64,000 nt of DNA from Nitrospirota bacterium (GTDB lineage Bacteria; Nitrospirota; Thermodesulfovibrionia; Thermodesulfovibrionales; Dissulfurispiraceae): positions 1,008,326-1,072,325 of the forward strand of contig CAVPZX010000002.1 of NCBI GenBank assembly GCA_963710375.1. Reading direction: 5' to 3'. Both the position numbers and the translations under genes were made by a program. Positions within the stretch are counted from its first letter, which is position 1. The number at the start of each line of letters is the position of its first letter. This document shows, piece by piece, positions 1 through 17,467 of this stretch. Below the pieces are notes generated by a model. That model saw only the letters and a program-made list of their open reading frames with translations, did not search any database and had not been told where the DNA came from.

Positions 1-260
1 TCCTCGTTACTATCAAAATAAGGATAGTATTAAACAGCTACTCCTTTACTAATTGCTGTATATTGCTACCCTAAAAAAACTATCCGTATAATACTACCAA
101 TTAATTTTTTTTTCAATAGCCTCAGTGAGGTTTGCTATAAATATTCATGAAGGTAGCTTAGGTGGAAAGCACCTCTTGTCTATAGCTTCCTCAAGGGTAC
201 CACTGGTTTGCCTCTTAAGGCACATATAAGATTTTTAACGTTTTGAAGTATACAAATGAA

Positions 261-298
261 AAGCAGGGGGATCATCACATTTAATGATCCCCCTGCTT
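261..298 (-). terminator. Intrinsic terminator-like hairpin downstream of the sigma-like gene
   Basis: Perfect 15-bp inverted repeat AAGCAGGGGGATCAT / ATGATCCCCCTGCTT, followed on the minus strand by a T-rich tract. Confidence 0.7.
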
Positions 299-356
299 AT
301 AATGGAGGCTGGCGGGCCATGATTGCAAAATTTATTTTTAGCCTGACAAGGTCAGA

Positions 357-1016
357 TTAATTATAATTTTCCTTACAATCCATTTCTTCTGGGACCGATT
401 CAGCGATTAATTCCCAGTGCGGCTTCCGATAAATGGATTGGGGTTTAAATCTCGTGAAGTCTTGATACTCAAGTCCTTTCCGCCGGACGATGGCATTTAT
501 TTGAGACTTTGCTTTTTTGATTTTTCTCTCTGCTGTACTCTTAGAGCAGCTGAATTTTTTTGCTACCTGCTCGTACGTCAGTTTTTCGCCATAATACTTC
601 AGGAGCATCTGGCGTGTTTTCTTTTCGTGGCCTGCAAGCAGAGTATCAACAAATGTTTTGACTTGTGCCAACAATAGCCTGTTCAGGATATTTTCCGCTC
701 TTAAGGGATATTCATGCTGTCCGGAAAAACCACGGGGAGTAACTTCGTCACTATAGCATTCATCCTGAGGCGCGGCTAATTCTCCTATATCGTCAACATA
801 TACCTCTTTTCCCTTTCTCTTACGGTAATCACTTCTAACCTTATGACGAACTTTTCGGAGATGACATTTAAAAGCGTCTCCTCGTGTCATAGAAGGATCT
901 GCCCTGTAATAAAAAGTTTCCCTGCCCATCAGATATGTATCCGCAATGATGTCATGATTGTTTCTGCTGTAATATCCAAGCCCATAGGCTTTACCGAGCT
1001 CGTCATTATTGAGCAT
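357..1016 (-). CDS. Sigma70 region-4-like HTH protein (ECF sigma-like)
   Basis: C-terminal LKYYGEKLTYEQVAKKFSCSKSTAERKIKKAK resembles the sigma region 4 HTH; divergent from tnsA. Confidence 0.55.
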   Translation of the reverse strand: MLNNDELGKAYGLGYYSRNNHDIIADTYLMGRETFYYRADPSMTRGDAFKCHLRKVRHKVRSDYRKRKGKEVYVDDIGELAAPQDECYSDEVTPRGFSGQHEYPLRAENILNRLLLAQVKTFVDTLLAGHEKKTRQMLLKYYGEKLTYEQVAKKFSCSKSTAERKIKKAKSQINAIVRRKGLEYQDFTRFKPQSIYRKPHWELIAESVPEEMDCKENYN

Positions 1017-1252
1017 TAATTGCTTTCCTCCACAAGGCCCGCCAGCCTCAGGATTATATCCAAAGATAACATCCAGATATAAAATGTCCTTTTGGACATT
1101 TCAACAAATTGCTTCGGAAGAATCTTGCATGCTGCATTGCAATACCATGACAGGCAAGACAAAGGTATAGCGGAAAGGTATGTAACCAGACCCGGGGGAC
1201 TTTCCCATGGATCAGCGTTACCAAAGTTAAAACCAGCAATATCAAAGAACAT
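1016..1252 (-). CDS. Small hypothetical protein
   Basis: 78-aa ORF whose TAA overlaps the ATG of the sigma-like gene (TAATG coupling); no recognisable motif. Confidence 0.3.
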   Translation of the reverse strand: MFFDIAGFNFGNADPWESPPGLVTYLSAIPLSCLSWYCNAACKILPKQFVEMSKRTFYIWMLSLDIILRLAGLVEESN

Positions 1253-1479
1253 AAAAACGAATAATTATAGCAGAACTATTTTCTAAAAAAGAAGGGAAAT
1301 TTAGTCGTTTGAAGCCTTTCCGTAACTGATTGGAATATCGAATATAAATCATGCAGTTTAAAAAAGATGGGAAAAATTGTACTGCTGGCGTCCCTATATG
1401 AATAGGGTAATTTGTTTGTTTCTTCTGTTAATCAGGGAAGCACCCAAGATATTGGAATTTGCTTTTTGGAGCGGATTAA

Positions 1480-1498
1480 AGGTATCATAATGATACCT
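1480..1498. promoter_or_regulatory. Palindromic operator-like site in the divergent sigma-like/tnsA intergenic region
   Basis: AGGTATCAT-A-ATGATACCT perfect 9-bp inverted repeat overlapping a possible -10 (TTGCTT-N18-TATCAT). Confidence 0.4.
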
Positions 1499-1731
1499 AA
1501 AATATTTCGATGAATGCTGCATTTATTTTTGATAGTTCACTCTTATTTCTTCCAAATTTATTCAATGTGTATTCTTAGTTAATGACTTGCCGCCCCCTTT
1601 GTCTATCTTAAGTGAAATAACAAAGGGGAGAAGGTGCGCAAGCGAGGCTGGCAGTCCCGTTATTTCAAGTTCTATTCTCGTTTAATTGATGGGACCGTAT
1701 TAACAATCTATTTTGCAGGAGGTGCTGAGGA

Positions 1732-2379
1732 GTGTCGGTAAGAAGAATAACAAACGGCGGCAGGAAGGTGATTGGGAAATTCCCGAGTCTTAAGATGGGG
1801 AGGGCCGTATGGTGGGAGTCGCAGCTTGAGCGAGATTATATTTATTATTTGGAGGTGGACCGAGACATTGTTTCGTACAAAGAGCAGCCTCTGAAGATCC
1901 GCTATCTGCTGGATAGGAAAATTCACCACTATACACCGGACTTCCTGGTCTGGCGGACAGACAAACAACAAATAGTCGAGGTGAAGGATGAGGAAAGCGC
2001 CGGCAAGGAAGAGTACAGGCATTTGTTCCATATTGTTGCCCCGCTTTTCATGGAGGAAGGATATGAATTTGTGGTAGTGACTGAGAAGACAATTCGTCTC
2101 AGGCCTCTTCTGGATAATTTAAAACTGCTGCACAAATATTCCAGAACAATAATTTCGCATAAGCACCAGATTGACGCGTATGCTTTTTTCTCAAGCGACG
2201 AAGACGGTACGCTGGGAAAGTTGGCGTCCTTCCTCAGAGCCAAGGGATCAGGCGCTGAAATAGCCTATGCCCTAATTTATTGGGGTGTCATTGCGGTCAA
2301 CCTTGCAAATCCTATTAATTCACAAAGCCAGGTGAGCCTGGCGGATGCATCGATGTTAACAAAGGAGAAGTGCGCGTGA
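1732..2379 (+). CDS. tnsA: TnsA-like endonuclease
   Basis: GKFPSLK...WESQLERD...EQP...YTPDFLV...VEVK motifs of the TnsA PD-(D/E)xK nuclease; AGGAGG upstream. Confidence 0.9.
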   Translation: MSVRRITNGGRKVIGKFPSLKMGRAVWWESQLERDYIYYLEVDRDIVSYKEQPLKIRYLLDRKIHHYTPDFLVWRTDKQQIVEVKDEESAGKEEYRHLFHIVAPLFMEEGYEFVVVTEKTIRLRPLLDNLKLLHKYSRTIISHKHQIDAYAFFSSDEDGTLGKLASFLRAKGSGAEIAYALIYWGVIAVNLANPINSQSQVSLADASMLTKEKCA

Positions 2380-4349
2380 AAAATCACAGATTTGGGAAAG
2401 GGCAGAGGATTGCCATGGGAGGGCGTGAGTACATAATAGAAAGACGACTTCCTAACGGCGATCTTCAATTAAAAGACATTGTAACCAACACATATATGGC
2501 AAAAGCGGCGGGGGAGCTTGTTAATGCTTTATTTAATGGCAATTTGGCCATGGTCGCCGATGAGCAACTCATTCCGTATGTCAGAAAAAATAGTGCTCGC
2601 GTGCTTAATGCGGATTTCACCCAATTGCCCGAGAGCGACAGAGAGAAGGCTAAACGGAAATACGCCTACGTCATGGAAATAATTAAGCGGGGCCTGGACA
2701 GGATCACAAAGCAATCTGTCGAGCCGGTTGTTAGTGAAGTAAGCAAAGAACTTAATGATTGTGCACCCCCCTCGTGGATTCAAGTCTACCGGTGGCACAG
2801 GGATTTCATCATATCGGGGGAAAACATTCGTTCCCTCGCACCTCTGACAAAGGCAAGAGGAAACCATAAGATACGACTGTCGGAAGAAGTCACGGCTATA
2901 ATCGAAACCATAATCAATGAAAAATACCTTGATACGCAAAGGGCCTCTGTTCTATCGACTTATGATACGGTGATAGCCAGAATAGCTCATGAAAACCAGC
3001 TAAGGCCAAAAGACGACCAGATAACAAAACCGAGCCAGATGGTTCTTTATCGAGCTGTTGCCAAACTCGATCCCTATGAGGAGATGAAAGCGAGATATGG
3101 CAAAGCAGCAGCCGACTTGAAGTTCAACCCCGTCAAGCAAGGCATACGCCCTACCCGGGCGCTGGAGCGGGTGGAAATTGACCATACGAAGTTGGACCTC
3201 TTTGTTATAGACACTGAAAGGAAAATGCCCATTGGGCGGCCGTGGCTCACTACCGCAATTGACGTTTATACAAAGTGTATAGCCGGCATGTATGTCAGCT
3301 TTAATCCGCCTTCTTATCTGTCGGTTATGCAGTGCATGCGCCATGCGATAACACCCAAAGCATACGTTAAGCAGCGGTACCCGGAGATTCGGCATGAATG
3401 GGGTGCCTACGGCAAAATGGAAAGTGTCGTGGTTGATAACGGGAAGGAGTTCCACAGCACACATTTTGAAGACGCATGCCTCCAGCTTGGGATTGTCCTT
3501 CAGTACGCGCCGATCAAACTTGCTTGGTACAAACCGAGCATCGAGAGATATTTCGGTACATTGAACACCAGATTGCTTCACCAACAGCCTGGCACGTCTT
3601 TCTCGAACATCGTTGATAAGGGAGATTATGACCCCAGGGAAAACGCAATTATCGACTTCAATACCCTCATGTCAGTGCTGCATAAATGGATTGTGGATGT
3701 TTACCATTACGATGAACATAGAGGCATACATGATATCCCGGCGCTTAGATGGGAAAAAGCGATAGAGGAATTCCCGCCGGCCCTCCCTTCCTGCAGGGAA
3801 GAACTTGATGTCATGCTCGGCATGATTGAAAAAAGGGTAATCTCCAAATCCGGGATCGAGCTCCACGGCCTTTTTTATAACGACGAGAGCCTTGCCCTGT
3901 TGCGCCGCAGGAGGAAAGAAGAGGGGAAGGTGACGGTCAAGTTCGATCCTGGCGACCTTTCGATGATCCATGTTTTCGATGAAGACAGCAATACTTTTAT
4001 TCCTGTGCCGGCTCAGGCTGTCACATATAGTGAAGGCCTGACCCTCTGGCAACACAATGTAATCAGGAGATATACCCGCAATTATATCGATGAGAACTGC
4101 GATATAATCTCCCTGGCCCTTGCAAAAGAAGAGATTCAGAGGATGGTCGAGAATGCATGGAACAGCAGCAAAAAAAACGGGACTCGCCAAAAGGCGGCGC
4201 GCTGGCTGAATCTTTCTCAAGAAAATCAGCTTGAGACCTCATTACAGGCGGATGCCTTCGGGGGGTCGGCAAGGTTACCGCTGACAAAGCCGGTTCGACG
4301 GGCTTGTTATGCCGGCAGCGAGCGTGCATCCGCTAAACCGCATATCTGA
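2376..4349 (+). CDS. tnsB: TnsB DDE transposase (Mu/Tn7 family); C-terminal tail probably continues in 4309-4629 after a frameshift
   Basis: VEIDHT, GRPWLTTAIDVYT, VVDNGKEF and KPSIERYF give the DDE triad; GTG at 2376 overlaps the tnsA stop and follows AGGAG. Confidence 0.92.
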   Translation: MKNHRFGKGQRIAMGGREYIIERRLPNGDLQLKDIVTNTYMAKAAGELVNALFNGNLAMVADEQLIPYVRKNSARVLNADFTQLPESDREKAKRKYAYVMEIIKRGLDRITKQSVEPVVSEVSKELNDCAPPSWIQVYRWHRDFIISGENIRSLAPLTKARGNHKIRLSEEVTAIIETIINEKYLDTQRASVLSTYDTVIARIAHENQLRPKDDQITKPSQMVLYRAVAKLDPYEEMKARYGKAAADLKFNPVKQGIRPTRALERVEIDHTKLDLFVIDTERKMPIGRPWLTTAIDVYTKCIAGMYVSFNPPSYLSVMQCMRHAITPKAYVKQRYPEIRHEWGAYGKMESVVVDNGKEFHSTHFEDACLQLGIVLQYAPIKLAWYKPSIERYFGTLNTRLLHQQPGTSFSNIVDKGDYDPRENAIIDFNTLMSVLHKWIVDVYHYDEHRGIHDIPALRWEKAIEEFPPALPSCREELDVMLGMIEKRVISKSGIELHGLFYNDESLALLRRRRKEEGKVTVKFDPGDLSMIHVFDEDSNTFIPVPAQAVTYSEGLTLWQHNVIRRYTRNYIDENCDIISLALAKEEIQRMVENAWNSSKKNGTRQKAARWLNLSQENQLETSLQADAFGGSARLPLTKPVRRACYAGSERASAKPHI

Positions 4350-4629
4350 TGTGGGAACAGCCATTTGTTGCGACAATTCTGAAGACTCGAGAGAAGCAGA
4401 AGAAGGCATCGTGATAACGAAGGAACCGATCAGAAAGAAAATGGGCGCTTTAAAAAAGGGAGCGGGAAGGCCGAAGAAAGAATTATCTGTTGTTAATGGT
4501 GCCGCAAAGAAGGCGGGCGACCAAAGAATTAAAGGCACTTCATCCTTTGCCGCAACCTCGATTAATGTTGAAGAGCACAGCGATTTGTCAGAATGGGATT
4601 ACAGTTACGCCATGCCCGGGAGGGCATAA
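4309..4629 (+). pseudogene. Probable frameshifted C-terminal tail of TnsB
   Basis: Low-complexity charged ORF ending DLSEWDYSYAMP, 3 bp before tnsC; +1 frame open from 4285. Confidence 0.5.
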
Positions 4630-4632
4630 GTA

Positions 4633-5694
4633 ATGACGCAGGGAAACGCTTTGAAAGTTGAGGATGTTTGCGGGATGGGAAAGCCCCTGGAGGTTAAGAA
4701 AGATTTTGGTGCTATGACAATGAAAGAGAGGGTCAACCTCATAGAGCATATTTTTATTTCTCACCCCCAGCTTAAGAATATTGTGAAGAAAATAGATGAA
4801 TGCCATCAGGACTCCAAGGTATCAATTGAGCCCAAATGCCTTTTCATAACCGGGAGGCCCGGCTGCGGCAAAACGACGATCGCAAGGTTTTATGAAAGCC
4901 GTTATCCGCGCAGGGCTACGGTTGGAGGTGCGGAGATTCCCGTGCTCTCCTCGACAATTTTCTCACCGGCAACAGTGAAAGGGATGGCGACGGGCCTGCT
5001 TTATAGTTTGGGCGACCCCATTGCGGATAAGGGAACAATAACCAGCCAAACAATCAGGTTATACAAAATGATCAAAGACTGCAAAACGGAGGTAATTGTT
5101 CTCGATGAATTCCAGCATCTTATTGATAAGGATTCGAACAAGGTCCTTCAAGTCGCTGCAGATTGGTTGAAGAATCTTCTAAACAACACCGCTGTCCCCA
5201 TGGTGTTGATCGGCATGCCGTCATCGGTAAAGATACTCGACGCGAACGAGCAACTGAGGCGACGTTTCCTGAACAGGATGTGCCTCAACCCGTTTGGATG
5301 GAATACGCCTCGGGAACAAAGGGATTTCATCACATTGTTGAAGTTCATAGAAAAGGCATTGCCGCTCAAAGAGATATCGGGACTCTATTCTTACGAGACA
5401 GCTTTCCGGCTTTATTGCGCATCGCGGGGAGTCATTTCCAACCTCATGAAGATTGTGCGCAAGGCTGCAATATTAGCGATCAGAAAAGGCCAGGAAAGAA
5501 TATCTCATGACTTGCTTATCGTGGCTTATGAAGATGAGATGGAGGAGAGTAGTGTTGCAGCAGACAACCCGTTTCTGCTTGATGTCGATAAGCTAACGGC
5601 GCCGCTCCTTGAGCAGAATGACGAGAAAGGACTTGGAAAAAGCGTCCGCGGGAGGACAGGCGTAAAACTCGCTGACGTGTTAAGCACAAGGTAG
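4633..5694 (+). CDS. tnsC: TnsC/TniB AAA+ ATPase
   Basis: Walker A GRPGCGKT, Walker B IVLDEFQHL, WLKNLLN, QLRRRF arginine finger. Confidence 0.92.
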   Translation: MTQGNALKVEDVCGMGKPLEVKKDFGAMTMKERVNLIEHIFISHPQLKNIVKKIDECHQDSKVSIEPKCLFITGRPGCGKTTIARFYESRYPRRATVGGAEIPVLSSTIFSPATVKGMATGLLYSLGDPIADKGTITSQTIRLYKMIKDCKTEVIVLDEFQHLIDKDSNKVLQVAADWLKNLLNNTAVPMVLIGMPSSVKILDANEQLRRRFLNRMCLNPFGWNTPREQRDFITLLKFIEKALPLKEISGLYSYETAFRLYCASRGVISNLMKIVRKAAILAIRKGQERISHDLLIVAYEDEMEESSVAADNPFLLDVDKLTAPLLEQNDEKGLGKSVRGRTGVKLADVLSTR

Positions 5695-5708
5695 GGGGAA
5701 TTTAAGAT

Positions 5709-7616
5709 ATGAGTGGAAAAATTACATTGCTCAGAATACTTAGGCCTCATAACGATGAGAGTTTCCCGGGTTTTCTTTTAAGGCTTGCGGAGGCGAACGG
5801 GTATGAGAGGTTTTCCTGGATATTGCAGATGGCTGGAATAACACACCCGGTAAATTATTTGCCGGATCCGGACCCATTAAAGGACAGGATAGATTTAAGC
5901 GAGCTTTCTAATATAACTAATGTCAGCGCGGAAGATCTGGGGTCGTTACTTTTCGAGCGACATGATGGGGGCAGACACTTCAAGCAGTTCGAGATTTTTG
6001 GGCAGGCGGTTCCCCGGTATATGGTGAGGTTTTCGAGGACAAAAGTTTGCCCAGCATGTCTGAAAGAGGCTAACTATAGCCGTAAAATATGGGACCTTGC
6101 GCCGGTGACTGTGTGCCCCATTCATAAATGTTTTCTTTATGACGTATGCCCGAATTGCTTGAGTCCCATTACATGGAACCGGGCTCATGTGAGTATCTGT
6201 AACTGCACGTACGATTTCCGGGAGGCTCCGCTGTTAAAAGTTAGAGAAGAGAATTTATCATTGGCAAAGTATATTTATTACCTATGTGGCATGCCGCTGC
6301 CCGGTGAGATCGTTCAAAGCGATAATCCTTTATATGCTCTGGATCTGCAGCATCTGCTGCTTGCCGTCTTTTTTATAGCGGGGCAACTCCACGGCTTTAC
6401 GGAGACAACGGGCAAATTCTCCGCGCCCTCTTCCCGAAATATAGTTCTTCTACATTCACTTGCCGAAGCATTCCAGGTTTTTGAAAATTGGCCCCATAAC
6501 TTCAACGCGTTCCTTGTAGGCTTGAGGGACCGGTATAACGTTTATGAAGGATCGACAGGGCTTAATGCGGATTTCGGGTAGTTTTACGAGTATATTTATA
6601 AGAATTTCGCCTCTTCAAAATTTCAGTTTATTAGGAGCGCATATGAAAAGTACTTGAGCGAACAATGGGATGGGGGATATCTATCGGCGAAATGTAAGTT
6701 CCTGACCAGGCGAGGCATTAGCCACAAGAAATTTGTCACTAGAATAAAAGCTCAGGAGATACTGCATGTTAAGGAAAAGGAAATTGATCGACTGCTTAAA
6801 ACTGGGGAGTTGTTTGGCATTACGAAAAAAATGAAATCCAGAACGATGTATTTGATCGACGTCAATAGCGTCAAAAGAGTAAGAGAGGCAAATAAAGAAC
6901 ATATGCGCCTCAAAGAAGTAGTGGGTTTCCTGGGAATAGGAGAAAAGACAATAATGGAGTTGGGCCGAGCAAAAATATTATGCATATATAACCGGGAGGT
7001 AAATAATTCCCTATGCTGGACTTTTAAGCGCACGGATGTCATATCCCTAATGCAAAAATTTGAGGAACTTGCAGAGGGAAATGAAAGCTGCTCGCTGAAA
7101 CGAATAACTTTTTCTACCTGTTTGAGAAAGCTTTCCGGCGGCAAAGTGGGATTAATAGAGTTGGTGAAGGCTGTTCTGGCTGGGGATACCCGCCCCTGCG
7201 GGAAAGGCCCGGGAAGAGGATTGCGCAGTTACCTTTTTTATGACAAGGACATTAATGAATTAGTGAGGGCTAATAGAGAAAAAAATAGGGGTAATCTGTA
7301 TTCCGTTACGGAAGCGTCGGAAATGCTTGGCCTCAAGGAGGAAGTTGTCTATTTTTTGACAAAGAAGGGAATTATTCCGGTCGAGAGGGTAACTAATGGG
7401 CAGAAAACGGCGGTTTTTGTGACCAAGGAATCAATTAGTAACTTTGAAGACACATACACAACCTTGTCTTCACTTGCCAAGGATAATTATACGTCTCCCA
7501 AACGCCTTGCACTCGCGCTAATGGATAAAGGGATATCGCCTGTCTCGGGCCCCCTGATTGACAGTGGAAGACAATACATATTTAAGAGAACTGATCTCCA
7601 ACGGTATGCTGCGTAA
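5709..7616 (+). pseudogene. tniQ: TniQ/TnsD-like target selector (~635 codons) interrupted by in-frame TAG at 6579-6581
   Basis: N-terminal DESFPGFLLRLAEANG and Zn ligands CPAC...W...CPIH...CPNC...C-C. ORFs 5709-6581 and 6654-7616 are in the same frame with one stop between them (ADFG*FYEYIYKNF...). C-terminal part has repeated HTH-like segments. Confidence 0.8.
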
Positions 7617-7734
7617 AGGAAGAGGTTAGATGTTTAGAATAGATATGTTGGAAATGCTGCTTATCTAAAAGGAGACGGCTTTCAGGGTTGTTAATGACGA
7701 AACGATATCTGGATTTTGAAGATGAAACGATCCA

Positions 7735-8286
7735 ATGAAATGGAAAGAGGAGAAAGAAATGGTCAGAAAAGAAAAGACATACAGGTTTTTAGCCATAGCA
7801 TATAATGTCGAACCCGAAACAGTTGACTACAAGACAGTCCGGTTGATGAGGATCAAAGCATTTCGATCCGACACAGCAGAAAAAATCGCAAACAGGCGAA
7901 TCGCGAAGCTGGAGAAGCGGACAGGCTGCGAGTGGACACTCCACAGGGAACCAGGCAAAGTATCGGACCGCGCAGAGCGGAGGCTCAGGGCAGTCAGATT
8001 TCTAAGCCGGGCAAATGATTGTATCTTGGAGAGTATTAAATCGCGGAAAGATCTCCGAGGCGAGATTGATAACATGTCAAAGACAGCGGAATATACGTCT
8101 GCAAAATATCCTGAACAGATACTCATGAAAGTCGCGTTGCTGCGTCGGAAGATTGGAGATACGGAATTACTTCGGGAAGCCAGCGAGCTCGCCTCCTTGG
8201 CCTCGTTGGCGTCGGCTGGGAAGCTGCGGCCTCCAGTTAACAAAGGGAAGTTGCTCTCGGATATAATAATTGAGGATCGCCAGTGA
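7735..8286 (+). CDS. Hypothetical basic protein (transposon cargo)
   Basis: 183-aa ORF; GAGGAG precedes the second Met; no recognisable motif. Confidence 0.5.
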   Translation: MKWKEEKEMVRKEKTYRFLAIAYNVEPETVDYKTVRLMRIKAFRSDTAEKIANRRIAKLEKRTGCEWTLHREPGKVSDRAERRLRAVRFLSRANDCILESIKSRKDLRGEIDNMSKTAEYTSAKYPEQILMKVALLRRKIGDTELLREASELASLASLASAGKLRPPVNKGKLLSDIIIEDRQ

Positions 8287-8347
8287 GTGCTTCCGACATA
8301 GCCACGATGATAATGCTGGAATTTTCTAATTATCAGTGGCACTATAA

Positions 8348-8869
8348 ATGAGGGTAGCTCCCGGGAGAAAAAAAGCTTTACCTGTGGATATGGACGAATC
8401 TCAGTTAAATCGCCTCAGAAGTTATGCATGGAACTACTTTGCTTATCATGCAGAGCAGAGAATTAAGACTTTTAACTTTTATATTATTCTTGTAGCAGTA
8501 ATCATCGGCGGCTGCGGAACAGCTCTATCTAATATAAATAAAGAATACTTTAGATTGCTTCTTTCTCTTCTCGGGTTCCTTCTCACAATTATTTCAGTCG
8601 CGTTCGCTTTCCTCGATCGAAGAAATAAGGAATTAGTTCGAAATGGTGAAGCTGCATTAAGGTACCTTGACGAATTCGAAGAACTACCAAGCGAAGGATC
8701 TGCGCCGCATGTTTTACAATTATTTTCAAGGGATGATCATATCTGTTCGAATAAGCCGAAAGGTCTATCCATCAGGGCTCATATTTCTTACTCCCACGTA
8801 TTTAGGAGTATTTTTCTTGTTTTTGGCGTGATAGGCCTGATTATAGGCATAGCGTGTTTGATATATTGA
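8348..8869 (+). CDS. Three-TM membrane protein (transposon cargo)
   Basis: AWNYFAYHAEQRIKTFNFY followed by two hydrophobic helices and a C-terminal TM helix. Confidence 0.7.
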   Translation: MRVAPGRKKALPVDMDESQLNRLRSYAWNYFAYHAEQRIKTFNFYIILVAVIIGGCGTALSNINKEYFRLLLSLLGFLLTIISVAFAFLDRRNKELVRNGEAALRYLDEFEELPSEGSAPHVLQLFSRDDHICSNKPKGLSIRAHISYSHVFRSIFLVFGVIGLIIGIACLIY

Positions 8870-9018
8870 GACTGGAGCTCAGGCAAGATTTTAGCGGCAT
8901 ATGGTTTTGACACTTTTGGGTACTAATTAGGTATCGAATGGTGACCCATTAACTGTCCCGCAGGAGAAGCTGTTATGATGTCCAAACAGATCGGAAGATA
9001 AGAAAGGGTGTATTACTC

Positions 9019-10035
9019 ATGACCCCCAAACCTCTTCGTATAGGCAATGCGGCACATAGGTTTAAGACATATGTAACGCCAGATTATGTATCAATTTCAG
9101 ATGGAGAAATAGCTCATTTTGAGACTTTTCTACGATTCCTTTACGAAAAGTATTTAGAGGGAAGTGTATTGCTTACCTACAGAGGAGAAGATTTTAGAAA
9201 TATTACGCGTAGATTAACCAACATCACAGTCCCCGATATAGAAATTTACAATCGAGCTTTCTATTTTGGCGATAAAGCAAGGCACTACCAATCGGATGTT
9301 TTTAATCCTGATAGCAGGAATTTTCTTACGGGTATAAATGACTCATCTGAGTCAACCATTGCGTATATTTTTAGCCGCATAAATAATGTTGTTACGTCAG
9401 AAAGCAATCTGAGAAGATTGGTATCTCAGAAATTTAGTAAGTTTTTCTCAAAAAATGATAATAAAGAACAATTTGTTTTGGCTATAAATCGCTGTGATAG
9501 CGAGGAAGAGAAGGTTAAGTTACGTGATTACTACCTTTATTTCTTGCATACTGCCGGGTCAAAAGGTATAAGAAAAGAGGCGTTCTTTGTTTCAACATCC
9601 TCAAGTAAGGTTGTTGCACGCGGCTTCGCCCGAAATCGCAAACTAATTTTTCATTATTATATTCCTCAACCGTATTATTGTCATGCTGTTGCACCTTGGA
9701 TTATTGAAGAACATCAACATATAGTAAATAAGCGGAAGCTGCCTATCTATCAACCTTTCGGACTTTTCGCTAACCAGACAGAAGTAGCAGTTAAAGGGGC
9801 TTTGTTTCCTCAATTCTTATATGGTATCGAATTGGTTGAGGGTAATCAATTGATGGTGAATCCTCATATTCTTTCCTTGAGAAAGAATCAGTTCAAGGAA
9901 GCTATAAAAACTGGCGTGACAATTGATCAGAGTGATTTTCATAATAAAATATTTCAAACTGGTTTTATTCGTTGGGTTCAAGCAGACGAAAACGGCCATT
10001 ACGAGCAGCATGACCTCTGTCATCACATGATATAG
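9019..10035 (+). CDS. Putative R-S-E clade ADP-ribosyltransferase-like protein
   Basis: TYRG, FVSTSSSKVVARGFA and NQTEV appear in the order expected for the R / STS / QxE motifs; AT-rich. Confidence 0.55.
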   Translation: MTPKPLRIGNAAHRFKTYVTPDYVSISDGEIAHFETFLRFLYEKYLEGSVLLTYRGEDFRNITRRLTNITVPDIEIYNRAFYFGDKARHYQSDVFNPDSRNFLTGINDSSESTIAYIFSRINNVVTSESNLRRLVSQKFSKFFSKNDNKEQFVLAINRCDSEEEKVKLRDYYLYFLHTAGSKGIRKEAFFVSTSSSKVVARGFARNRKLIFHYYIPQPYYCHAVAPWIIEEHQHIVNKRKLPIYQPFGLFANQTEVAVKGALFPQFLYGIELVEGNQLMVNPHILSLRKNQFKEAIKTGVTIDQSDFHNKIFQTGFIRWVQADENGHYEQHDLCHHMI

Positions 10036-10195
10036 AATGACTATGGGTGACACACTGGCAGCTTGCGGTGTTACTATGCACTATCGAAGAATGGAGACCA
10101 ACATACCATATGTGGCGGACGCATGAACTTTGGCGACTGTAAGGCCGCAGATGTTGAATGTGTATAAGAGAAGGTTGAAATAATACATGGCCCAG

Positions 10196-10540
10196 TTATC
10201 GCAGCACTGATTCCAAATCCATTTCGTCTTTTATCATCCCTACAGTGTCACCCGGTATCAACAGAACCAGCTTCTGTAAAGGCTTTGAAGGGGGTATCTC
10301 GTCTTTTATCACTTGTCTCGCCAAGGAAGATGCACGGAGTTCTTTGCGTCGCTGCCGCCAGGGTTTTACATAGTCGAGATAGAGGTTGTCGAAATAGGTG
10401 GAATTATTTTGCTGCCATTGCTGCTGGGCCTGTTTCTTCCTTGCCCGCTTGCATTGCTCCCTCTGGCAGACTTTCTGCCTTTGGCCAACTCGTTTATCAG
10501 GTGTGAAATACCGCCCACAGTGCATGCATCGCTTGACCAA
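10196..10540 (-). CDS. Zinc-ribbon hypothetical protein, possibly a truncated mobile-element gene
   Basis: CxxC...FTPDKR...RQKVC...C...W...N..YF; GGAGG RBS upstream. Confidence 0.55.
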   Translation of the reverse strand: MVKRCMHCGRYFTPDKRVGQRQKVCQREQCKRARKKQAQQQWQQNNSTYFDNLYLDYVKPWRQRRKELRASSLARQVIKDEIPPSKPLQKLVLLIPGDTVGMIKDEMDLESVLR

Positions 10541-10937
10541 TGATTACCTCCAGTTACTTTGTTTGTGGTAATCATTGTATGTAAAGGTGGGTTTCTAAGG
10601 TTGGGGTTTCAGTCTACCAAAAAATGCCAACTGTAAATTTCAGGCTGGTTCCATCGGTGGCGCTTTCGGTTCCTCCGCTATCAGTCCTTTTACTCCGGCC
10701 CCCACAGACGGGTAGAGGTCCATGCGCCTTCACATATTGCTTATCAGATAATAAAAGAAATAATTACATATGGAAGAAAAAATGCCGATGATTCTGTAAT
10801 AGAAGAATGGCGAGAATATAGTGCCAAATATTTGAAGCTACCTGTGGAATGAAGATGGCAATAAAGAGGCTGGTTAATGAATTTTACAATTTGGACGATT
10901 TCACAGAGAACTATGCGGTCTCTCCTGGTTATGCAAC

Positions 10938-13574
10938 TTAGAGTAAACTCTTAGCGCACCGGAAACCAGCATTCCCGCAAAGGTAGCCAGGGAGGTACGA
11001 GTTGATGCTGGCGCATCGGCAGTAAGCGGATCCATCGGCCCAAGAACCGCCATGAAGCGCTTGCCTGTCCTCGGTCCACTCCCACATGTTACCGGCCATG
11101 TCGTAGCAGCTGTAAGGACTTACGCCGTTAGAATACTTATTGACGGGTGTTGTTTTTCCAAGACCCGACTCTGTAGTGTTGCACCTCTTCCGATCGAATT
11201 GATTGCCCCAGGGATAGACCCGTCCGTCAATGCCTCTAGCAGCCTTTTCCCACTCCTCCTTGGTTGGTAGACGCTTGTCAGCCCATTCAGCATAGGCACG
11301 GGCACCATGCCAGAAGACAAAAATCACTGGGTGCTTCTCAAAGCCTGACTTGACCACAAACCGCTTTTTATTAAAACGAATGTGACAATGTTCCCCCGCG
11401 TAGATCCCTTTCAGGTCTATCCATTGTTCTTTTTCTACAGCGGTGCAACCCATGGCATTCAAAAAATCGGTGAATTCAGCATTCGTCACAGGGTATTTAT
11501 CTATGAAAAAACTCTCCTTGATGTTGGAAATTCGAATATTATCATCCGCGCCTATTATGAACTGGCCTGATGGAACGAAGACCATATCGGACGGTTCCTC
11601 AATCCCAACCGTTGGTTCAATATATTCATAAACAGAGGGCGTTATCATGTAGGACACAAAGAGGGCGATCTCATTAGTGATATTTTTTTTCCGTGCCATA
11701 TTCTTTGGTATTTCCTTTGCTATCTTGCATGCGACAAAATATTCTATAAATGATCGATGAGCGAAGGCATAGTACCCCTCCGCATCATTGCGTTGGAGAA
11801 AGGTAGAATTTCGTATCTGATAGTCCAGATTATCGAGCGACAGCCTCAATGTATCCTTAACAGGCGCATCGAAAAACCTATTAATGGCCTCCAGCAGGGT
11901 ATTAAAATGTAGCTTATACTTTTCTCTTGTGAACATATAAAAGGCAAGCTCCTCCATAAAGAGCATGATGCCTTTGGGCAGCTTTGCTTCTGACCGCTTC
12001 TGTTCACGTTGTTCCCATGCCTCTGTAATTACTTGGTATAGCCTTCCTGAGGTTATCGTTCCTTTTGCGTTTCTGATTGCCTCGATATCTTTGACGATCA
12101 TCTCGATCAGTATGGGACGGCTTGCGAGATCCTTCATATCGAAGACTTTTGTTAAGGTATTTCTCCAAAACTGCTCTGCCTCTTTTTCTCCGAGGCAAAG
12201 ACTCAAATAGGTTTTTATTTGGGAATCGGCGAATGGGCATATATAGACCCTTTCAAAACGGGGTCTTTGGAACCCGCTCGGCCCTGCTTGAGCGCCCTGT
12301 ACGAGAGCAAGGTGATCTTTTTCTTCATAAACACTTCTAAAAAATTGCGTCCTGCTCGTCAGGATCACTTTGTGATATGGCGCGGCAATCATGGACAGGT
12401 TCTCGATTTCCCTGAGAACCGTTTTCTTGTCGAACGTTACCGATAATTCATCAAAACCGTCTAGGATGAGGATTATCTCACCCTCTTTCCCCTTGGTTCT
12501 GGCATCAATCTCGGCTTGGGCAGCCTCCTGCCAGCCTCTTGTCCGGACTTGGCTGAGGCTCGCGATAACAGGGATGTATTTCGGTCCTTCAAGATCAGAG
12601 GCGAGTTTGTAGCAGAATGACGTTTTGCCGATGCCATAGTCGCCGAGCACTGCCAGGAGCTTCCGATTCGGGTCCTTCAGCCATTCATGGGTATACGTGT
12701 GCAGCAACTTCGTACTCTTTTGCTTGATGTCTTCAGCATGGCAGAACGGTTCAATGTAATGCTTTGGCACATATTCGCAATACTTTCTTTGCTCACTTGG
12801 CGGCGGAGGCGCCTCTAAGGGAGGATCCAAGACAATTATTGTTCTCGGGAAGCCGCATGCTGATAGCCATTTATTAACGGGTTTAAGAATCCGGTTTGTT
12901 TTCTTCTCCTCTTCTTCTAAGCGTTCACCTATTATCGAATTACCCTTCCAGTGCCATATGACTATCCCTTGGTTAATCTCAACTGACGTGATATGCTCCC
13001 TGATCCCGCCCTGATCCATCCGGATATAAGCCTGATCCATCTCATCGGCAAGCCGTAATAATGCAGTTATGCGAATAAGGTTGATGGGTTCCTGACAAAG
13101 CTGTTCGTCAGCGAAATTCTCGGGGAGGTCGGCAATAGGGCAAATGTCCTCAGTGGAATGTCCAAAACAGACATTAGCGACGGCTTCAGCAATTGGCGGT
13201 ATCATCTTCGTGCGATGATGCGGACGAAATGGCCCGAAGAAGTATTTATCTGGATCATTTAAAATATATTTCCTAGATCGCAGGGAATGATCTTTGGGGT
13301 CAATGCGGTCGCTTTCGTCGCGATAGCCGATATCGTGCAGATAGACGGCATAGAGCAGGATGAAAATCTCAACTGGATTGAGACCTCGTTTGAAAGCCTC
13401 GGGGATAAGCTGATCGAGTTTGACTTCCAACCTTTTGGAATGATCGATCCCATTCTTGTCGATGCCGTCAAGCCATTCAGAAGCATTTTTTTTCACCTTT
13501 TCGATATGTTCGTGAAGGTTGACTCCCCCATCGCAAGTTGTTTTCCCCAACAGCAGTTCATGCAATGCGCCCAT
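10938..13574 (-). CDS. HD-domain / NACHT NTPase / formylglycine-generating-enzyme (FGE, C-type lectin fold) protein
   Basis: HD: DHS...YLHDIG...LLRLADEMD. NACHT: GDYGIGKT, LILDGFDE, ILTSR, FAHRSFIEYF. FGE: YPVTNAEF, RLPT.EEWEKAARG, YDMAGNMWEW, GFRC. Start placed at ATG 13574 after a GGAG RBS. Confidence 0.85.
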   Translation of the reverse strand: MGALHELLLGKTTCDGGVNLHEHIEKVKKNASEWLDGIDKNGIDHSKRLEVKLDQLIPEAFKRGLNPVEIFILLYAVYLHDIGYRDESDRIDPKDHSLRSRKYILNDPDKYFFGPFRPHHRTKMIPPIAEAVANVCFGHSTEDICPIADLPENFADEQLCQEPINLIRITALLRLADEMDQAYIRMDQGGIREHITSVEINQGIVIWHWKGNSIIGERLEEEEKKTNRILKPVNKWLSACGFPRTIIVLDPPLEAPPPPSEQRKYCEYVPKHYIEPFCHAEDIKQKSTKLLHTYTHEWLKDPNRKLLAVLGDYGIGKTSFCYKLASDLEGPKYIPVIASLSQVRTRGWQEAAQAEIDARTKGKEGEIILILDGFDELSVTFDKKTVLREIENLSMIAAPYHKVILTSRTQFFRSVYEEKDHLALVQGAQAGPSGFQRPRFERVYICPFADSQIKTYLSLCLGEKEAEQFWRNTLTKVFDMKDLASRPILIEMIVKDIEAIRNAKGTITSGRLYQVITEAWEQREQKRSEAKLPKGIMLFMEELAFYMFTREKYKLHFNTLLEAINRFFDAPVKDTLRLSLDNLDYQIRNSTFLQRNDAEGYYAFAHRSFIEYFVACKIAKEIPKNMARKKNITNEIALFVSYMITPSVYEYIEPTVGIEEPSDMVFVPSGQFIIGADDNIRISNIKESFFIDKYPVTNAEFTDFLNAMGCTAVEKEQWIDLKGIYAGEHCHIRFNKKRFVVKSGFEKHPVIFVFWHGARAYAEWADKRLPTKEEWEKAARGIDGRVYPWGNQFDRKRCNTTESGLGKTTPVNKYSNGVSPYSCYDMAGNMWEWTEDRQALHGGSWADGSAYCRCASINSYLPGYLCGNAGFRCAKSLL

Positions 13575-13873
13575 AGAAGCTCCCTTAAAGGTGAATGTGA
13601 AAGCCAAATCAATATCTTTCAAGTATTGTACATAAAACATCAGATGAATTGGAAAAGAACGAGAGGTGTTGCAATAGAGACGATACCATATGGAAATTAA
13701 TTTAATATTGAAAAAGTTGAACGATGAATGGTAATTGCGGCTATAGCTGATAGCTAGCATGTGATCGACCGGGCCTCGAATAGGATCCAATATATTTTAG
13801 AGCAAATACTCGAAATTAAAATAGAATTTGCATTTTAGCCTGGGTCAACAATTGAACGGTGATGTGTGGAATT

Positions 13874-14005
13874 TTTCATTTTTTGCGCAAAATCTTCCGG
13901 AATTTTTCACTTTATGTGCAAAATATTTTCATTTTATAAGATAATAGGTTTTGTAACTTATTGAAATTACATCGGGGCAACTTTCACTTTTTGAGAAAAC
14001 CTATA
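13874..14005. repeat. Tn7-like transposon end: four TnsB-site-like repeats plus an IHF-like site
   Basis: TTTCAYTTTWT-N repeats at 13874, 13905, 13927 and 13982; TAACTTATTGAAA at 13954-13966; terminus AACCTATA. Confidence 0.75.
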
Positions 14006-14015
14006 GCATGCTTGT

Positions 14016-14082
14016 TGTGGGTTGACGCATAAACTGCAATTCCTGACTCATAAGTTGCAGTAAATTGACGCATAAGCTGCAA
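14016..14082. repeat. Mini-transposon end with three closely spaced TnsB-site-like repeats
   Basis: TGTGGG, then TTGACGCATAAACTGCAA (14022), CTGACTCATAAGTTGCAG (14043), TTGACGCATAAGCTGCAA (14065). Confidence 0.75.
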
Positions 14083-14701
14083 TAAGCTTTTGTTGAACGT
14101 GTGCAGAAAAAAGTAGATGTTGTGACTGAACACCAGATAATGGTACTAGCACACTAACTAGGGTGGCAGGATAAAAGCCAGAAGCTGTAAAAAAAGAGAG
14201 GCTCCACGTCTTCCCTCGTACCTTGCACTATTCGTTTGTTTGGTACACCCTAATCCGCTTTGTTCAAATTGTTGCAGCAGTGAAGATTTTCGAGAGAAGT
14301 CCACAGACCGGGCCAGAATAAGCAACGGGGATACTCATTAGTGAAAAATTAAACAGGTTTATCCCCCGTTTGCATGAATTTGTTGTACGCCATCTTGCCA
14401 TAATGCTGTCAAGTTCAAATAGTAGAAGGTAGTGTCTCAGTTTGATTTTTTGTATAATATAGTTCAGGAGGTGATGTCTTTGAAAGCAATTTTGATGTAA
14501 CGCCTGAAGCTCCTTAATAACGCAAAAGTATTTATGTATTTATGATACGAAGGGGAGCGCCACCGACAGGGCTGTTGGGATTGCCAACTTAGATGCTCAC
14601 TCATCTAAAATGTTTGAGGGTGGTTATTGCAATGGTATGTCATTTTATCAGACGGGAACGGGTGCGTAGAGTGAGTAAGCGCCCGGCTTCTACTTTTTTT
14701 C

Positions 14702-14730
14702 TTGACAGGGAACGTTCGTTCACCTATAAT
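14702..14730 (+). promoter_or_regulatory. Perfect-consensus sigma70 promoter upstream of the dcd-like gene
   Basis: TTGACA-17 bp-TATAAT, 49 bp before the ATG at 14780. Confidence 0.8.
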
Positions 14731-14779
14731 TATTAAAAAGAACTTTACATTTTGATTATAGTAGATTAATGTTAAACAA

Positions 14780-15445
14780 ATGATACTAACAGACAAGCTC
14801 ATAAAAGATGTATGTAGTAAAGGGGATATCAAGATTGTGCCATTTGAGGATTGTCAAATTGAACCCGCCTCATATGATTTGCGAGTAGGGAAACACGGTG
14901 CTACGACAAGTACAAAAAAAATTGTTGACATAGAAAAGCAAGGATACATGCTGATTGAACCGGGGGATTTTGCTATTGTCGGTGTTTTGGAAGAGATTAC
15001 TCTTGGATCAAAATATGCGGGACGTATAGGCTTGCGCTCAAAATTTGCCCGAAAGGGATTAATAGCAACAGCAGGGTCGCAAGTTGATCCGGGCTATCAC
15101 GGTCGTCTTAAAATTGGACTTACCAACTTGACACCTAAAGCAATATCTTTGCCGTTTAAGGATGATTTTATAACATTAGAGATTCATGAACTTACAGAAC
15201 CGGCGTTAAAACCATATGATGGTCCCTATCAAGATCAATTAGATTTAAGTCCAGCGGATATAGAAGCAGTTACCGAAGGGAGCGGAATGGCACTTTCAGA
15301 AATGATGGTGACATTAAGCTCTCTGAGTCAAAACGTGGGAAGGTTAAGCACGGATTTTGAAGTATTCCAAAAAACGCTTAAAATAGTTGGCGGAATCCTA
15401 AGTTTACTTATTGCCATAGCAACCATTATTGTTGCTTTAAAATAA
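14780..15445 (+). CDS. dcd: dCTP deaminase (trimeric dUTPase fold) with C-terminal helical extension and TM helix
   Basis: QIEPASYDLRVG, RSKFARKGL, VDPGYHG.L.I.LTN, PYDGPYQ.Q; hydrophobic tail IVGGILSLLIAIATIIVALK. Confidence 0.8.
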   Translation: MILTDKLIKDVCSKGDIKIVPFEDCQIEPASYDLRVGKHGATTSTKKIVDIEKQGYMLIEPGDFAIVGVLEEITLGSKYAGRIGLRSKFARKGLIATAGSQVDPGYHGRLKIGLTNLTPKAISLPFKDDFITLEIHELTEPALKPYDGPYQDQLDLSPADIEAVTEGSGMALSEMMVTLSSLSQNVGRLSTDFEVFQKTLKIVGGILSLLIAIATIIVALK

Positions 15446-15576
15446 ACTTGTCTTAAAACAACAATAGAATTTCCTCAAAGTCCCAAGCATGATGGACCTG
15501 CCCCCAAAAAACTGTGCCAGCGATAATTTGAGTTTTCTGGCAAAATTAACTACCCAAAGAAAGGGAGGATTTTGCC

Positions 15577-15843
15577 ATGAAGAAGTCGAAGTATACGGAA
15601 GAACAGATTGCTTTTGCGTTGAAGCAAGCAGAGACTGGTACACCGATAGCCGAAGTGATCCGGAAACTTGGGATCAGTGAGCAGACCTTTTACAACTGGA
15701 AAAAGAAGTATGGCGGACTGGGCCCCAGTGAGCTAAGGAGGCTGAAGCAACTGGAAGAGGAGAACCGGACGCTCAAGCAGATGATTGCAGACCTGAGCTT
15801 AGATAAGCACATGCTGCAGGAGGTACTCAGAAAAAAATTCTAA
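15577..15843 (+). CDS. IS3 transposase OrfA
   Basis: MKKSKYTEEQI...GISEQTFYNWKKKYGG...LKQLEEEN..LK; A7 slippery run just before the stop. Confidence 0.92.
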   Translation: MKKSKYTEEQIAFALKQAETGTPIAEVIRKLGISEQTFYNWKKKYGGLGPSELRRLKQLEEENRTLKQMIADLSLDKHMLQEVLRKKF

Positions 15844-16672
15844 GGCCTGACCGAAAGCGTAAACTGGTGAAATATCTCCAGGAAAGTTTCAGGGTCAGTG
15901 AGCGGAGGGCATGCAAGGCATTAGCTTTTGGCCGTACCACTCACCGATACCGGAGCAAACTAAAGGGCAGGCCGAACTCATCATGAGGATCAAAGAGCTT
16001 GCTGCTGTTAGAGTGCGTTATGGATACCGTAGAATCCACGTGCTTTTAAGACGAGAGGGGTGGAAAGTAAACCATAAGCGGGTGCATCGTCTATATCTGC
16101 TGGAGGGGCTGAATCTCAGGACGAAGAGGCCTAAGCGGAAGCGCCCTGCAATGGTAAGAATTCTCCGAGAGCCAGCAGTAACAGTGAATACGTGTTGGAG
16201 CATGGACTTCGTTTCTGATAGCCTATTCAATGGCCGGCGGTTCAGATCATTAACTGTAGTCGATAATTTTAGTCGGGAGTGCTTAGCGATCGAGGTGGAT
16301 CAGGGCATCAAAGGGGAGCAGGTAGTAGCGGTGATGAATCGCTTGAAATACATCAGGGGAGTACCCAAGAGCATACGGGTTGACAACGGCCCGGAGTTCG
16401 TCTCGAAAGCATTAGATCAGTGGGCGTATGAAAACGGGGTTACGCTGGATTTCTCGCGGCCTGGAAAGCCCGTGGATAATGCCTTTGTCGAGTCCTTCAA
16501 TGGAAGCTTCCGGGACGAGTGTCTGAATGTGAACTGGTTTCTCTCGATAGAAGATGCTAAGATGAAGATCGAGACATGGCGGAAGGAGTATAACGAGTTC
16601 CGTCCCCATAGTTCTCTGGACGATATGACGCCCAGTGATTTTGCCAAAGCGGAGGCCGCAGCGGCGGCTTAA
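15836..16672 (+). pseudogene. IS3 transposase OrfB (DDE) with an additional frameshift near 15960
   Basis: WSMDFVSD, VDNGPEF, ESFNGSFRDECLN. The -1 frame (...VSERRACKAL...RYRSK) does not join the GQAELIMRI frame without one extra base. Confidence 0.8.
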
Positions 16673-16728
16673 AAAGGCCGGAAAACTCAACATTACGGTG
16701 GACCACTTTTCGGGGTACAGTCAAACTT

Positions 16729-17031
16729 ATGAGCATTCAAACAACTGGTTGGTCCAACAAGGGGGGGACCTCTGACAGAGCGTGCGCCTGTGGAACGTGG
16801 AAGCAACACTGGATAAATTTTTCTAAGAAAACATGGCCCGCAAGTTGCTCAGTTGAAAAATGTTCCAATACGCCTACCATAGGTGGTCACGTCATTAATC
16901 CGAGTGTGGACGGAGAGCGGATTGTTCCTATGTGCGACTCATGTAATAAGCTCAGCGGTACTTTCACATTGAAGGGTGGCGTTACTCTTCCAAGCGCTAA
17001 CCAATCACAAACCTGCGCGAAAAAGGTATAA
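16729..17031 (+). CDS. Small Cys-rich protein with HNH-like motif; probable gene cassette
   Basis: CACG.W..HW, C...C, GGHV, IVPMCDSCN; stop codon lies inside an attC-like R'' box. Confidence 0.6.
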   Translation: MSIQTTGWSNKGGTSDRACACGTWKQHWINFSKKTWPASCSVEKCSNTPTIGGHVINPSVDGERIVPMCDSCNKLSGTFTLKGGVTLPSANQSQTCAKKV

Positions 17032-17099
17032 CACGTCGCTTCCAAGGGATGCTGCTGCGTGCCTTTATCGCGCAGCATCCCTTAACTGCAAGGTTACCC
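17026..17099 (+). other. attC-like integron recombination site
   Basis: GTATAAC (R'') ... TTCCAAGGGATGCTGC / GCAGCATCCCTTAA (12-bp perfect stem, unpaired extra bases) ... GTTACCC (R'); 74 bp. Confidence 0.65.
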
Positions 17100-17323
17100 C
17101 ATATGTTTCCGTTAATCTGCATTAGCTTCAATTAATAAGATCAAACGATAAATCGGTGTACAAGACAAAGGAGTGGAGTATGAGTCTTGTTAACAGCTTC
17201 GGTCTCTTCCATTGCTACCCCTGCTAACCTCTCGCCGGAATGAGTGGCAGGAATAAATTGGAATAGGTGGCAGGATTCCTCGGAATCTCCAGAAATCAGT
17301 GAATATTTTTGTCCATTGGGGAG

Positions 17324-17455
17324 TTTCATTTTATACGTTAATTTTTCAGGATATTTTCACTTTATGCGTTAAAGCTATTTCATCTTATACGTTAAATTCC
17401 TCCATAACTGATTGAAATTTGGTCGCCTTAATTTCATTTTATGTGTTAACCTACA
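17324..17455. repeat. Mini-transposon end: four TnsB-site-like repeats plus an IHF-like site
   Basis: TTTCAYYTTATRYGTTAA at 17324, 17355, 17378 and 17432; TAACTGATTGAAA at 17405-17417; terminus AACCTACA. Confidence 0.8.
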
Positions 17456-17467
17456 CATGCTGTTATT

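Follow-up and report, generated by a model that had tools for sequence, protein, structure and literature searches.

Behind the DNA gyrase B gene, gyrB, of a Nitrospirota bacterium (GCA_963710375.1), Tn7-like transposon shells form a 23.8-kb stack that contains four transposon ends. It was followed up from a 64,000-nucleotide stretch of contig CAVPZX010000002.1 (G000:C2:1008326-1072325; hereafter the window). Positions are window coordinates, and negative positions lie to the left of the window. The stack has the order end, cargo, tnsABCD, cargo, end, then 10 bp, then end, 3.4-kb cargo, end. Tn7-like transposons likely reuse the 3' end of gyrB as a landing site. The stack itself probably arose by repeated TnsD-guided insertions a few bases apart behind gyrB, later collapsed by deletions into two hybrid shells, here called A and B (Table 1).

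The initial annotation had recognized three ends, at 14005, 14016 and 17455. The labels L and R used here mark position only; L1 and R1 bound shell A, and L2 and R2 bound shell B. The 18-nt repeats start at offsets 6/61/83/114 from the terminus at the 14005 end (R1) and at 6/60/83/114 at the 17455 end (R2), which reproduces the common layout described earlier (spacings 55/22/31 and 54/23/31). The inward-facing end at 14016 (L2) starts with TGTGGG and shares 20 of 25 bases with the 17455 end, again as described, and has its repeats at offsets 6/27/49. A matrix trained on the repeats of these three ends was run over the 3.19-Mb genome. It found four strong clusters, all within the island, and one weak two-site cluster on C5; three of the strong clusters are the training set, and only the fourth, at -6393, is an independent match. 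The leftward extension that the initial annotation had proposed thus located the partner end, L1, with gyrB as the likely attachment gene, while its proposed search for further copies gave, outside the island, only the weak C5 cluster. L1 (C2:1001932, window -6393) lies outside the window, 12 bp past the gyrB stop codon, and consists of TGTCGG followed by three repeats at offsets 6/27/49. The adjoining gyrB sits in a dnaA-dnaN-gyrB region and its top NCBIfam match is gyrase B. Lone single-repeat end-like sites were also seen near contig starts beside transposase fragments, at G000:C3:2226-2249 (-) and at about 2810 (-) of C2.

The ends are asymmetric, with close sites (6/27/49) at one end and spaced sites (6/60-61/83/114) at the other, and the repeats are presumably TnsB binding sites. 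Both close ends of the island lie on the gyrB-proximal side of their shells, and relatives are arranged likewise. By the convention of PMC11406308, in which close ends proximal to the attachment site are right ends and spaced ends are left ends, -6393 and 14016 are right ends and 14005 and 17455 are left ends. A site resembling that of integration host factor (IHF) is found at offset 38-39 in both spaced ends of the island. Over all loci collected such a site, allowing at most one mismatch, occurs in 40 of 61 spaced ends versus 1 of 48 close ends; left ends of CRISPR-associated transposons (CASTs) of type I-F are described as carrying an IHF site (PMC10201428). Three of the four termini start with TGT. 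The exception is 14005, with TAT; within the family, 13 of 61 spaced ends begin in this way, among them the G263 end that has a perfect 5-bp flank repeat. Alternative termini (14013, 17457 or 14008, with 8-9-bp terminal sequences) were rejected because the flanks outside TGTNGG vary freely over 27 ends, and because exact 5-bp repeats stand at the chosen register in G263, L112 and L275.

Read from gyrB, the anatomy is the gyrB stop, GTGAAGCATGCT, L1, cargo, tnsABCD, cargo, R1, GCATGCTTGT, L2, cargo, R2, CATGCTGTTATT and a GNAT gene. The 10-bp gap between R1 and L2, GCATGCTTGT, was reported correctly. Logan contigs from five runs of two studies, one run possibly being the source, reproduce all three window junctions, and the junction on the L1 side is confirmed in contigs as well. 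An assembly artefact at the junctions was rejected, since the contigs of other runs agree.

The initial annotation had divided the stack into two self-contained elements, the second a transposase-less mini-element. The repeats do not support this division. Their mean identity is 0.884 for L1/R2, which have one identical 18-mer, 0.755 for L1/R1, 0.708 for L2/R2 and 0.625 for L2/R1. For reference, eight pairs taken as intact elsewhere gave 0.78-0.87 and 56 cross combinations gave 0.73 +/- 0.07. On the evidence of their repeats, it is the outermost ends that match each other, the R2 repeats matching those of the gyrB-side end, while the identities within the two proposed elements are no higher than those of ends combined at random. 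The notion of successive elements at a hotspot survives as a one-orientation Tn7-like stack whose shared site is the gyrB 3' end. The 3440-bp shell B indeed contains no tns gene; it does contain an IS3-family element with its own transposase. With mismatched ends (0.71), no duplication and a single copy in the genome, it does not qualify as a non-autonomous mini-element or miniature inverted-repeat transposable element (MITE), and it looks like a relic shell rather than the cargo vehicle that had been suggested. Both termini and all repeats are intact, however, and shell B could be mobilized in trans.

The end pattern recurs at gyrB. It gave 27 matches in 17 of 390 genomes of the class, compared with one match for the reversed control; 13 of the 27 lie directly behind the gyrB stop and one more behind another end there. 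When 29 gyrB loci of relatives were picked by gyrB similarity alone, 10 had, no more than 25 bp from the stop, a hexamer resembling a terminus, for which the chance expectation is about 1 by a hand estimate. Within the genus the count was 6 of 7, and 4 of the 29 loci passed a stricter matrix. A scored end lies 5-18 bp past the stop (median 11) in 23 of 50 distinct gyrB ends, a set that includes loci selected by the motif. Inspection of these 23 gyrB flanks by eye showed a final TGT in 5 and, in 6, the sequence TGTAGGA with which a G285-type end begins; arriving elements therefore seem to insert within the initial bases of those already present. Since kin are not independent, the counts at gyrB show recurrence and not a rate. 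In the genome G063 the interval from gyrB to gyrA contains three shells that lack tns genes, separated by spacers of 2 and 7.

A distant second lineage is found behind gyrB in G285. Its end has a different repeat motif and lies 3 bp past the stop, followed by type I restriction-like cargo, tnsABC and a gene for a 1036-residue TniQ-HTH protein; its TnsB is 30% identical to the local one. This second gyrB-homing end type, TGTAGG followed by GCAATAAAGTTTT-like repeats 1-3 bp past the stop, occurs at L273 (G285:C125), L008/L037 (G007) and L007 (G006). In G315 an end lies 13 bp past gyrB, and a tnsABCD operon (TnsB 51% identical) is on a separate contig. Both contigs stop in similar repeats, which suggests that end and operon are linked across the contig break.

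Some gyrB loci have unusual arrangements. At L003 (G005), 14 bp past the gyrB stop, two inverted termini abut in a relic of 24 bp; no smaller collapsed shell was seen. In L045 (G010), about 65 bp with a hairpin flanks a 2.1-kb methyltransferase shell (gyrB stop +5 to +70 and +2117 onward), and the hairpin is inverted in the second ~65-bp copy. In L006/L047 (G004:C60:56847-56957) the gyrB 3' end is duplicated about 770 bp downstream and a transposon end follows the second copy.

A 5-bp target duplication is absent from every pairing at the present locus, and the 5-bp flanks CTTGT and CATGC differ, as had been noticed. The exact flank repeats are 6 bp (CATGCT) around the outer pair and 7 bp (GCATGCT) around shell A, and there is none around shell B. 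CATGCT, which had been placed after both right-hand ends, follows 17455 directly and 14005 one base later. An exact 5-9-bp repeat is expected in 0.16% of random flank pairs. Elsewhere, among 16 end pairs that include some hand-paired alternatives on the same contig, an exact 5-bp repeat was found in three: L112, the G263 pair at gyrB, and L275, an element on a finished plasmid. Spacers at 19 distinct back-to-back junctions, drawn from several attachment sites and some possibly circle junctions, were 2, 2, 3, 4, 4, 5 (six), 6 (four), 7, 7, 10 and 12. The mode is 5 (6 of 19), and the spacer of 10 is the present locus. G000, G010 and G005 had suggested a fixed 7-bp duplication, an idea abandoned in view of G263, L112 and L275. 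In the same end family, flank repeats of 3-4 bp surround the MITE-sized L104/L144 and L117 (318 bp) and the core TnsABC-short-TniQ elements L132 and L149 (4.4-5.4 kb) where flanks exist.

From the ends, flanks, genes and recurrence at gyrB we infer recognition of gyrB by TnsD, an order of events and a collapse. By analogy with Tn7 (PMC11406308), TnsD would bind the conserved 3' coding end of gyrB and load TnsC, and TnsAB would then insert the element with its close end toward gyrB and with a 5-bp stagger. The recognized gyrB DNA would survive insertion, and the site could therefore be reused. The insertion point would wobble between 5 and 18 bp past the stop, so that a newcomer would land just before the resident or within its first bases. 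Four 5-bp targets would account for all junction bases: CATGC (+7..+11, after 17455), ATGCT (+8..+12, before -6393), CTTGT (3 bp into an older end, before 14016) and GCATG (+6..+10, after 14005). The inner partner ends would then have been lost through deletion or recombination among the stacked elements, with hybrid shells as the result. The L1 flank at -6393 would require recombination with a copy carrying the ATGCT insertion, a weak step. The empty site between gyrB and the GNAT gene would have read GTGAAGCATGCTGTTATT.

Several observations weigh against this history. It requires at least four insertions plus recombination, whereas the rival with one 6-bp and one 7-bp stagger would require three. 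The other 13 of the 16 end pairs show repeats of 4 bp in two (one being the intact element L132) and 3 bp in one, the 5-mer displaced by 1-2 bases in three, and no repeat in seven. The link between TnsD and gyrB is a positional association in G000, in G285 and, by inference, in G315. A close tnsC was found in only 4 of 317 genomes of the order. The closest TnsD, 70% identical, is on a contig without ends in G001, a genome in which no gyrB end was found. An empty site was not seen: GNAT relatives occur in 9 of 67 family genomes and none is preceded by gyrB within the 1.5 kb examined. Target immunity is described as strong in the Tn7-like elements tested (PMC11014353), and the stacks suggest that it is leaky or evaded here. 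In further searches, TniQ gave matches in 2 of 401 genomes, TnsB scans gave one locus in genome contigs and one in the viral set, and the distant tns operons of G003, G063 and G064 have neither ends of the island type nor gyrB nearby.

The main rival, which we consider unlikely, is a gyrB-homing family with a variable stagger of 3-7 bp. The outer ends would be one insertion (6-bp CATGCT), shell A a later one (7-bp GCATGCT), and the 14016 end would belong to a third element, inserted 3 bp within the first. This needs fewer events and avoids recombination at the L1 flank, and it is consistent with the exact 6-bp repeat around the sequence-matched outer pair, the exact 7-bp repeat around A, and the exact 4-, 4- and 3-bp repeats around L117, L132 and L104. 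It is opposed by the three clean 5-bp pairs, one at gyrB and one in a finished plasmid, by the junction spacer mode of 5, by the poor pairing of shell A's own ends (0.755), and by the offset cases G005 and L146, which have an extra T or TT unmatched in the other flank. A 5-bp duplication is also called characteristic of all Tn7 relatives (PMC11406308). A broader version is quite unlikely. In it, two or more Tn7-like lineages far apart from each other (different end motifs, TnsB ~30% identical, offsets of 1-3 versus 5-18 bp) would home to the gyrB stop, and each would insert into terminal bases of the other, target immunity being ineffective. The transposase stagger would range from 3 to 7 bp in place of the 5 bp regarded as universal for the Tn7 family, and the stack would be a gene-capture array beside the replication origin.

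The two-element division might be rescued if B (14016-17455) came first and A inserted in front of it, with different TnsB specificities avoiding immunity and the flanks decaying later. The geometry fits, running close to spaced twice in the same orientation with tns genes only in A. The different TnsB specificities that the initial annotation had supposed may exist: repeats agree in type within an end, and also within other elements, so that transposase variants may correspond to repeat types. Yet the TnsBs of L132 and L149, 92% identical over 332 residues, go with TTAAC- versus TTTGC/TTGGC-type repeats, and the overall repeat motif is shared by TnsBs that have 43-51% identity to the local one. 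The pair identities (0.755 and 0.71) fall below those of intact pairs, the best match, with its identical 18-mer, crosses the two elements, and neither has a 5-bp duplication; the division is judged very improbable. Lastly, homologous recombination could have brought into one element, spanning -6393 to 17455, the end-to-end junction of the excised, circular form of a second element. This would yield exactly the nested order with matched outer ends, and abutted ends are common in metagenome contigs, where some could be circle junctions. The inner ends are nevertheless the worst-matched pair (0.625), and TnsA is encoded, which implies cut-and-paste transposition (PMC11406308). No excision joints were seen in contigs of the sequencing runs, a negative that proves nothing by itself. 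Circle uptake is extremely unlikely.

Shell A carries tnsA, tnsB, tnsC and a TniQ-family gene in one operon, as expected of a Tn7-like element. The tnsB frame is restored in 4 of 4 runs, which do not have the extra base, and P0001 reads through. A frameshift in gyrB is likewise an assembly artefact, removed by contigs of other runs. The TAG in tnsD is kept in contigs of X1 and X3, both of which span it, and is a real stop. An intact 636-residue relative, 70% identical, is encoded in G001. A natural two-gene TniQ plus HTH form is possible but unlikely, because the close relative is one 636-residue frame and the stop is in frame; a split TniQ/HTH_17 form is described from an archaeal clade (bioRxiv 2025.07.27.667033). 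By sequence, tnsABC look intact and tnsD is truncated, and the stack is therefore probably unable to home by itself. Among solved proteins, the best matches to the TnsB family are PseTnsAB and the Tn6677 TnsB of I-F CASTs (query P0003, 69% identical to the local TnsB). Matches from a PDB search with TnsD cover the TniQ core only.

Table 1. Features of the island in window coordinates
Feature	Position	Strand	Description
Shell A	-6393 (G000:C2:1001932) to 14005	.	20,399 bp; 1..14005 is the distal 14 kb inside the window
Shell A cargo before tnsA	about 8 kb		MqsA-like HTH, PRTase-CE, ORC-CDC6-like ATPase, CARF-like, type II methyltransferase, sigma70-r4
tnsA	1732..2379	+	PF08722
tnsB, DDE transposase	2370..4629	+	PF09299/PF00665; split in the window by a 1-base assembly error at about 4294
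tnsC, AAA+ ATPase	4633..5694	+	PF05621
tnsD	5709..7616	+	TniQ (PF06527) and HTH_17 repeats, 635 codons; in-frame TAG at 6579-6581
Cargo past tnsD	7735..13790	.	8xMP membrane protein, unknown ORFs, HD-CE/NACHT/FGE-sulfatase fusion
HD-CE / NACHT-like NTPase / FGE-sulfatase fusion	10938-13790	-	950 aa
R1, spaced end	13874..14005	-	terminus TATAGG at 14005; repeats 13982-13999, 13927-13944, 13905-13922, 13874-13891
R1 IHF-like site	about 13954-13966
10-bp spacer GCATGCTTGT	14006..14015	.	copy of post-gyrB-stop DNA (GCATGCT) plus TGT, the first bases of an end
L2, close end	14016..14082	+	TGTGGG; repeats 14022-14039, 14043-14060, 14065-14082
dCTP deaminase, shell B cargo	14780..15445	+	TIGR02274, 97.2 bits (cut-off 92.8); hydrophobic C-terminal tail
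IS3-family element	15493..16723	+	orfA 15577-15843, orfB to 16672; outer limits approximate
Cys-rich ORF, shell B cargo	16729..17031	+	100 aa; without family match
R2, spaced end	17324..17455	-	terminus TGTAGG at 17455; repeats 17432-17449, 17378-17395, 17355-17372, 17324-17341
R2 IHF-like site	about 17405-17417
CATGCT	17456..17461	.	identical hexamer stands before the gyrB-side end; the GNAT gene of the host begins at 17468

The parE gene is a paralogue of gyrB, and the gyrB family scan shows cross-matches with parE families. Tn7-like elements at parE are described in PMC11014353, PMC11406308 and PMC9881144, and a parE-targeting TnsD in the latter two. These elements (the Tn7017 lineage and the Acinetobacter parE family) resemble the island in having TnsABC and a long TniQ downstream of a type II topoisomerase B-subunit gene. 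The island also sides with the parE-type and I-F CAST elements in its TnsB, nearest to PseTnsAB and Tn6677 TnsB, and in the IHF-like site of its spaced ends. Unlike the parE family, it adjoins gyrB proper and has a single TniQ of ~636 residues with HTH_17 repeats, no second small TniQ and no cas genes seen. The cargo proteins scanned included no cas families, and the 20 largest direct-repeat families of window positions 1-30000 included no CRISPR array, the part left of the window being unscanned for arrays; the island is not classed as a CRISPR-associated transposon. It works like a parE-type transposon and has the genes and ends of a Tn7-like element, but by site it is not of the parE family.

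Tn7 at its glmS attachment site shares with the island the close sites proximal and spaced sites distal to the attachment site, and the fixed orientation (PMC11406308 for the end anatomy). Tn7 islands also carry defence-type and IS3 cargo (PMC8649781), and active and inactive elements occur together at one site (PMC11014353, section 15). Unlike in Tn7, the first repeat of the island ends begins at base 7, the insertion wobble is wide, and TAT termini occur in 13 of 61 spaced ends, although non-TGT ends are in print (PMC11406308). The Tn7 TnsB is only a weak match (E 2.6e-17) and no tnsE was recognized in the island. Tn6022/AbaR stacks in comM are similar in that a single site has undergone both recombination and several insertions, as deduced from the target duplications (PMC11014353), but the island inserts after and not into its target gene, and no TnsF was recognized in it. 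Short-TniQ TnsABC elements of cyanobacterial plasmids (NC_019761.1, L275) have nearly the same end motif and layout, with TnsB 41% identical. L275, with its exact 5-bp duplication, differs as a 5.6-kb core element whose short TniQ has no HTH tail and which is not at gyrB.

Stacking at Tn7 attachment sites and the parE site are already published, Nitrospirae are known hosts of Tn7-like elements (PMC8649781), and stacking in itself is ordinary. The addition made here is an attachment site at gyrB, which two distant lineages use across a bacterial class. No paper on such a site was found in a literature search that most subscription papers lay outside; PMC10293859 mentions neither gyrase nor parE in its text or three supplements. 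A nearly complete protein set is available, with TnsABC apparently intact here and TnsD in G001. Because gyrB is near-universal and its 3' end conserved, a TnsD that reads gyrB would be a candidate tool for integration in a broad range of hosts. In addition, the locus offers a direct test of the 5-bp stagger and of target immunity for this clade.

The cargo ahead of tnsA is mostly of defence type. Genes for the PRTase-CE, ORC-CDC6-like ATPase and CARF-like proteins stand in a row (L001:9991-13833, in shell A left of the window), likely a defence or conflict operon; a 1-base assembly error lies at L001:10777, between the PRTase-CE and ORC-CDC6-like genes. In shell B, the dCTP deaminase has no second copy found in the genome and no PADLOC match, and a role in nucleotide-depletion defence is a guess. 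The IS3 element has 44-nt inverted repeats (15498-15541 and 16677-16720) and is also single-copy in the genome. Repeats of the GTGGCAGGA type, which we take to resemble IS21-family end repeats, are found at 17170-17290 and 14160-14180, with an 82% look-alike of 109 bp at G000:C5:188199-188305.

Ends with the same motif were also seen away from gyrB. In the metagenome loci L101, L102, L105, L110, L112 and L115, and likewise in L120, L121, L128, L138, L160 and L172, they lie 27-31 bp past long ORFs with a conserved Cys-rich tail, which we take to be class II ribonucleotide reductase (nrdJ). Sites at nrdB (PMC11014353) and nrdD (bioRxiv 2025.07.27.667033) are in print.

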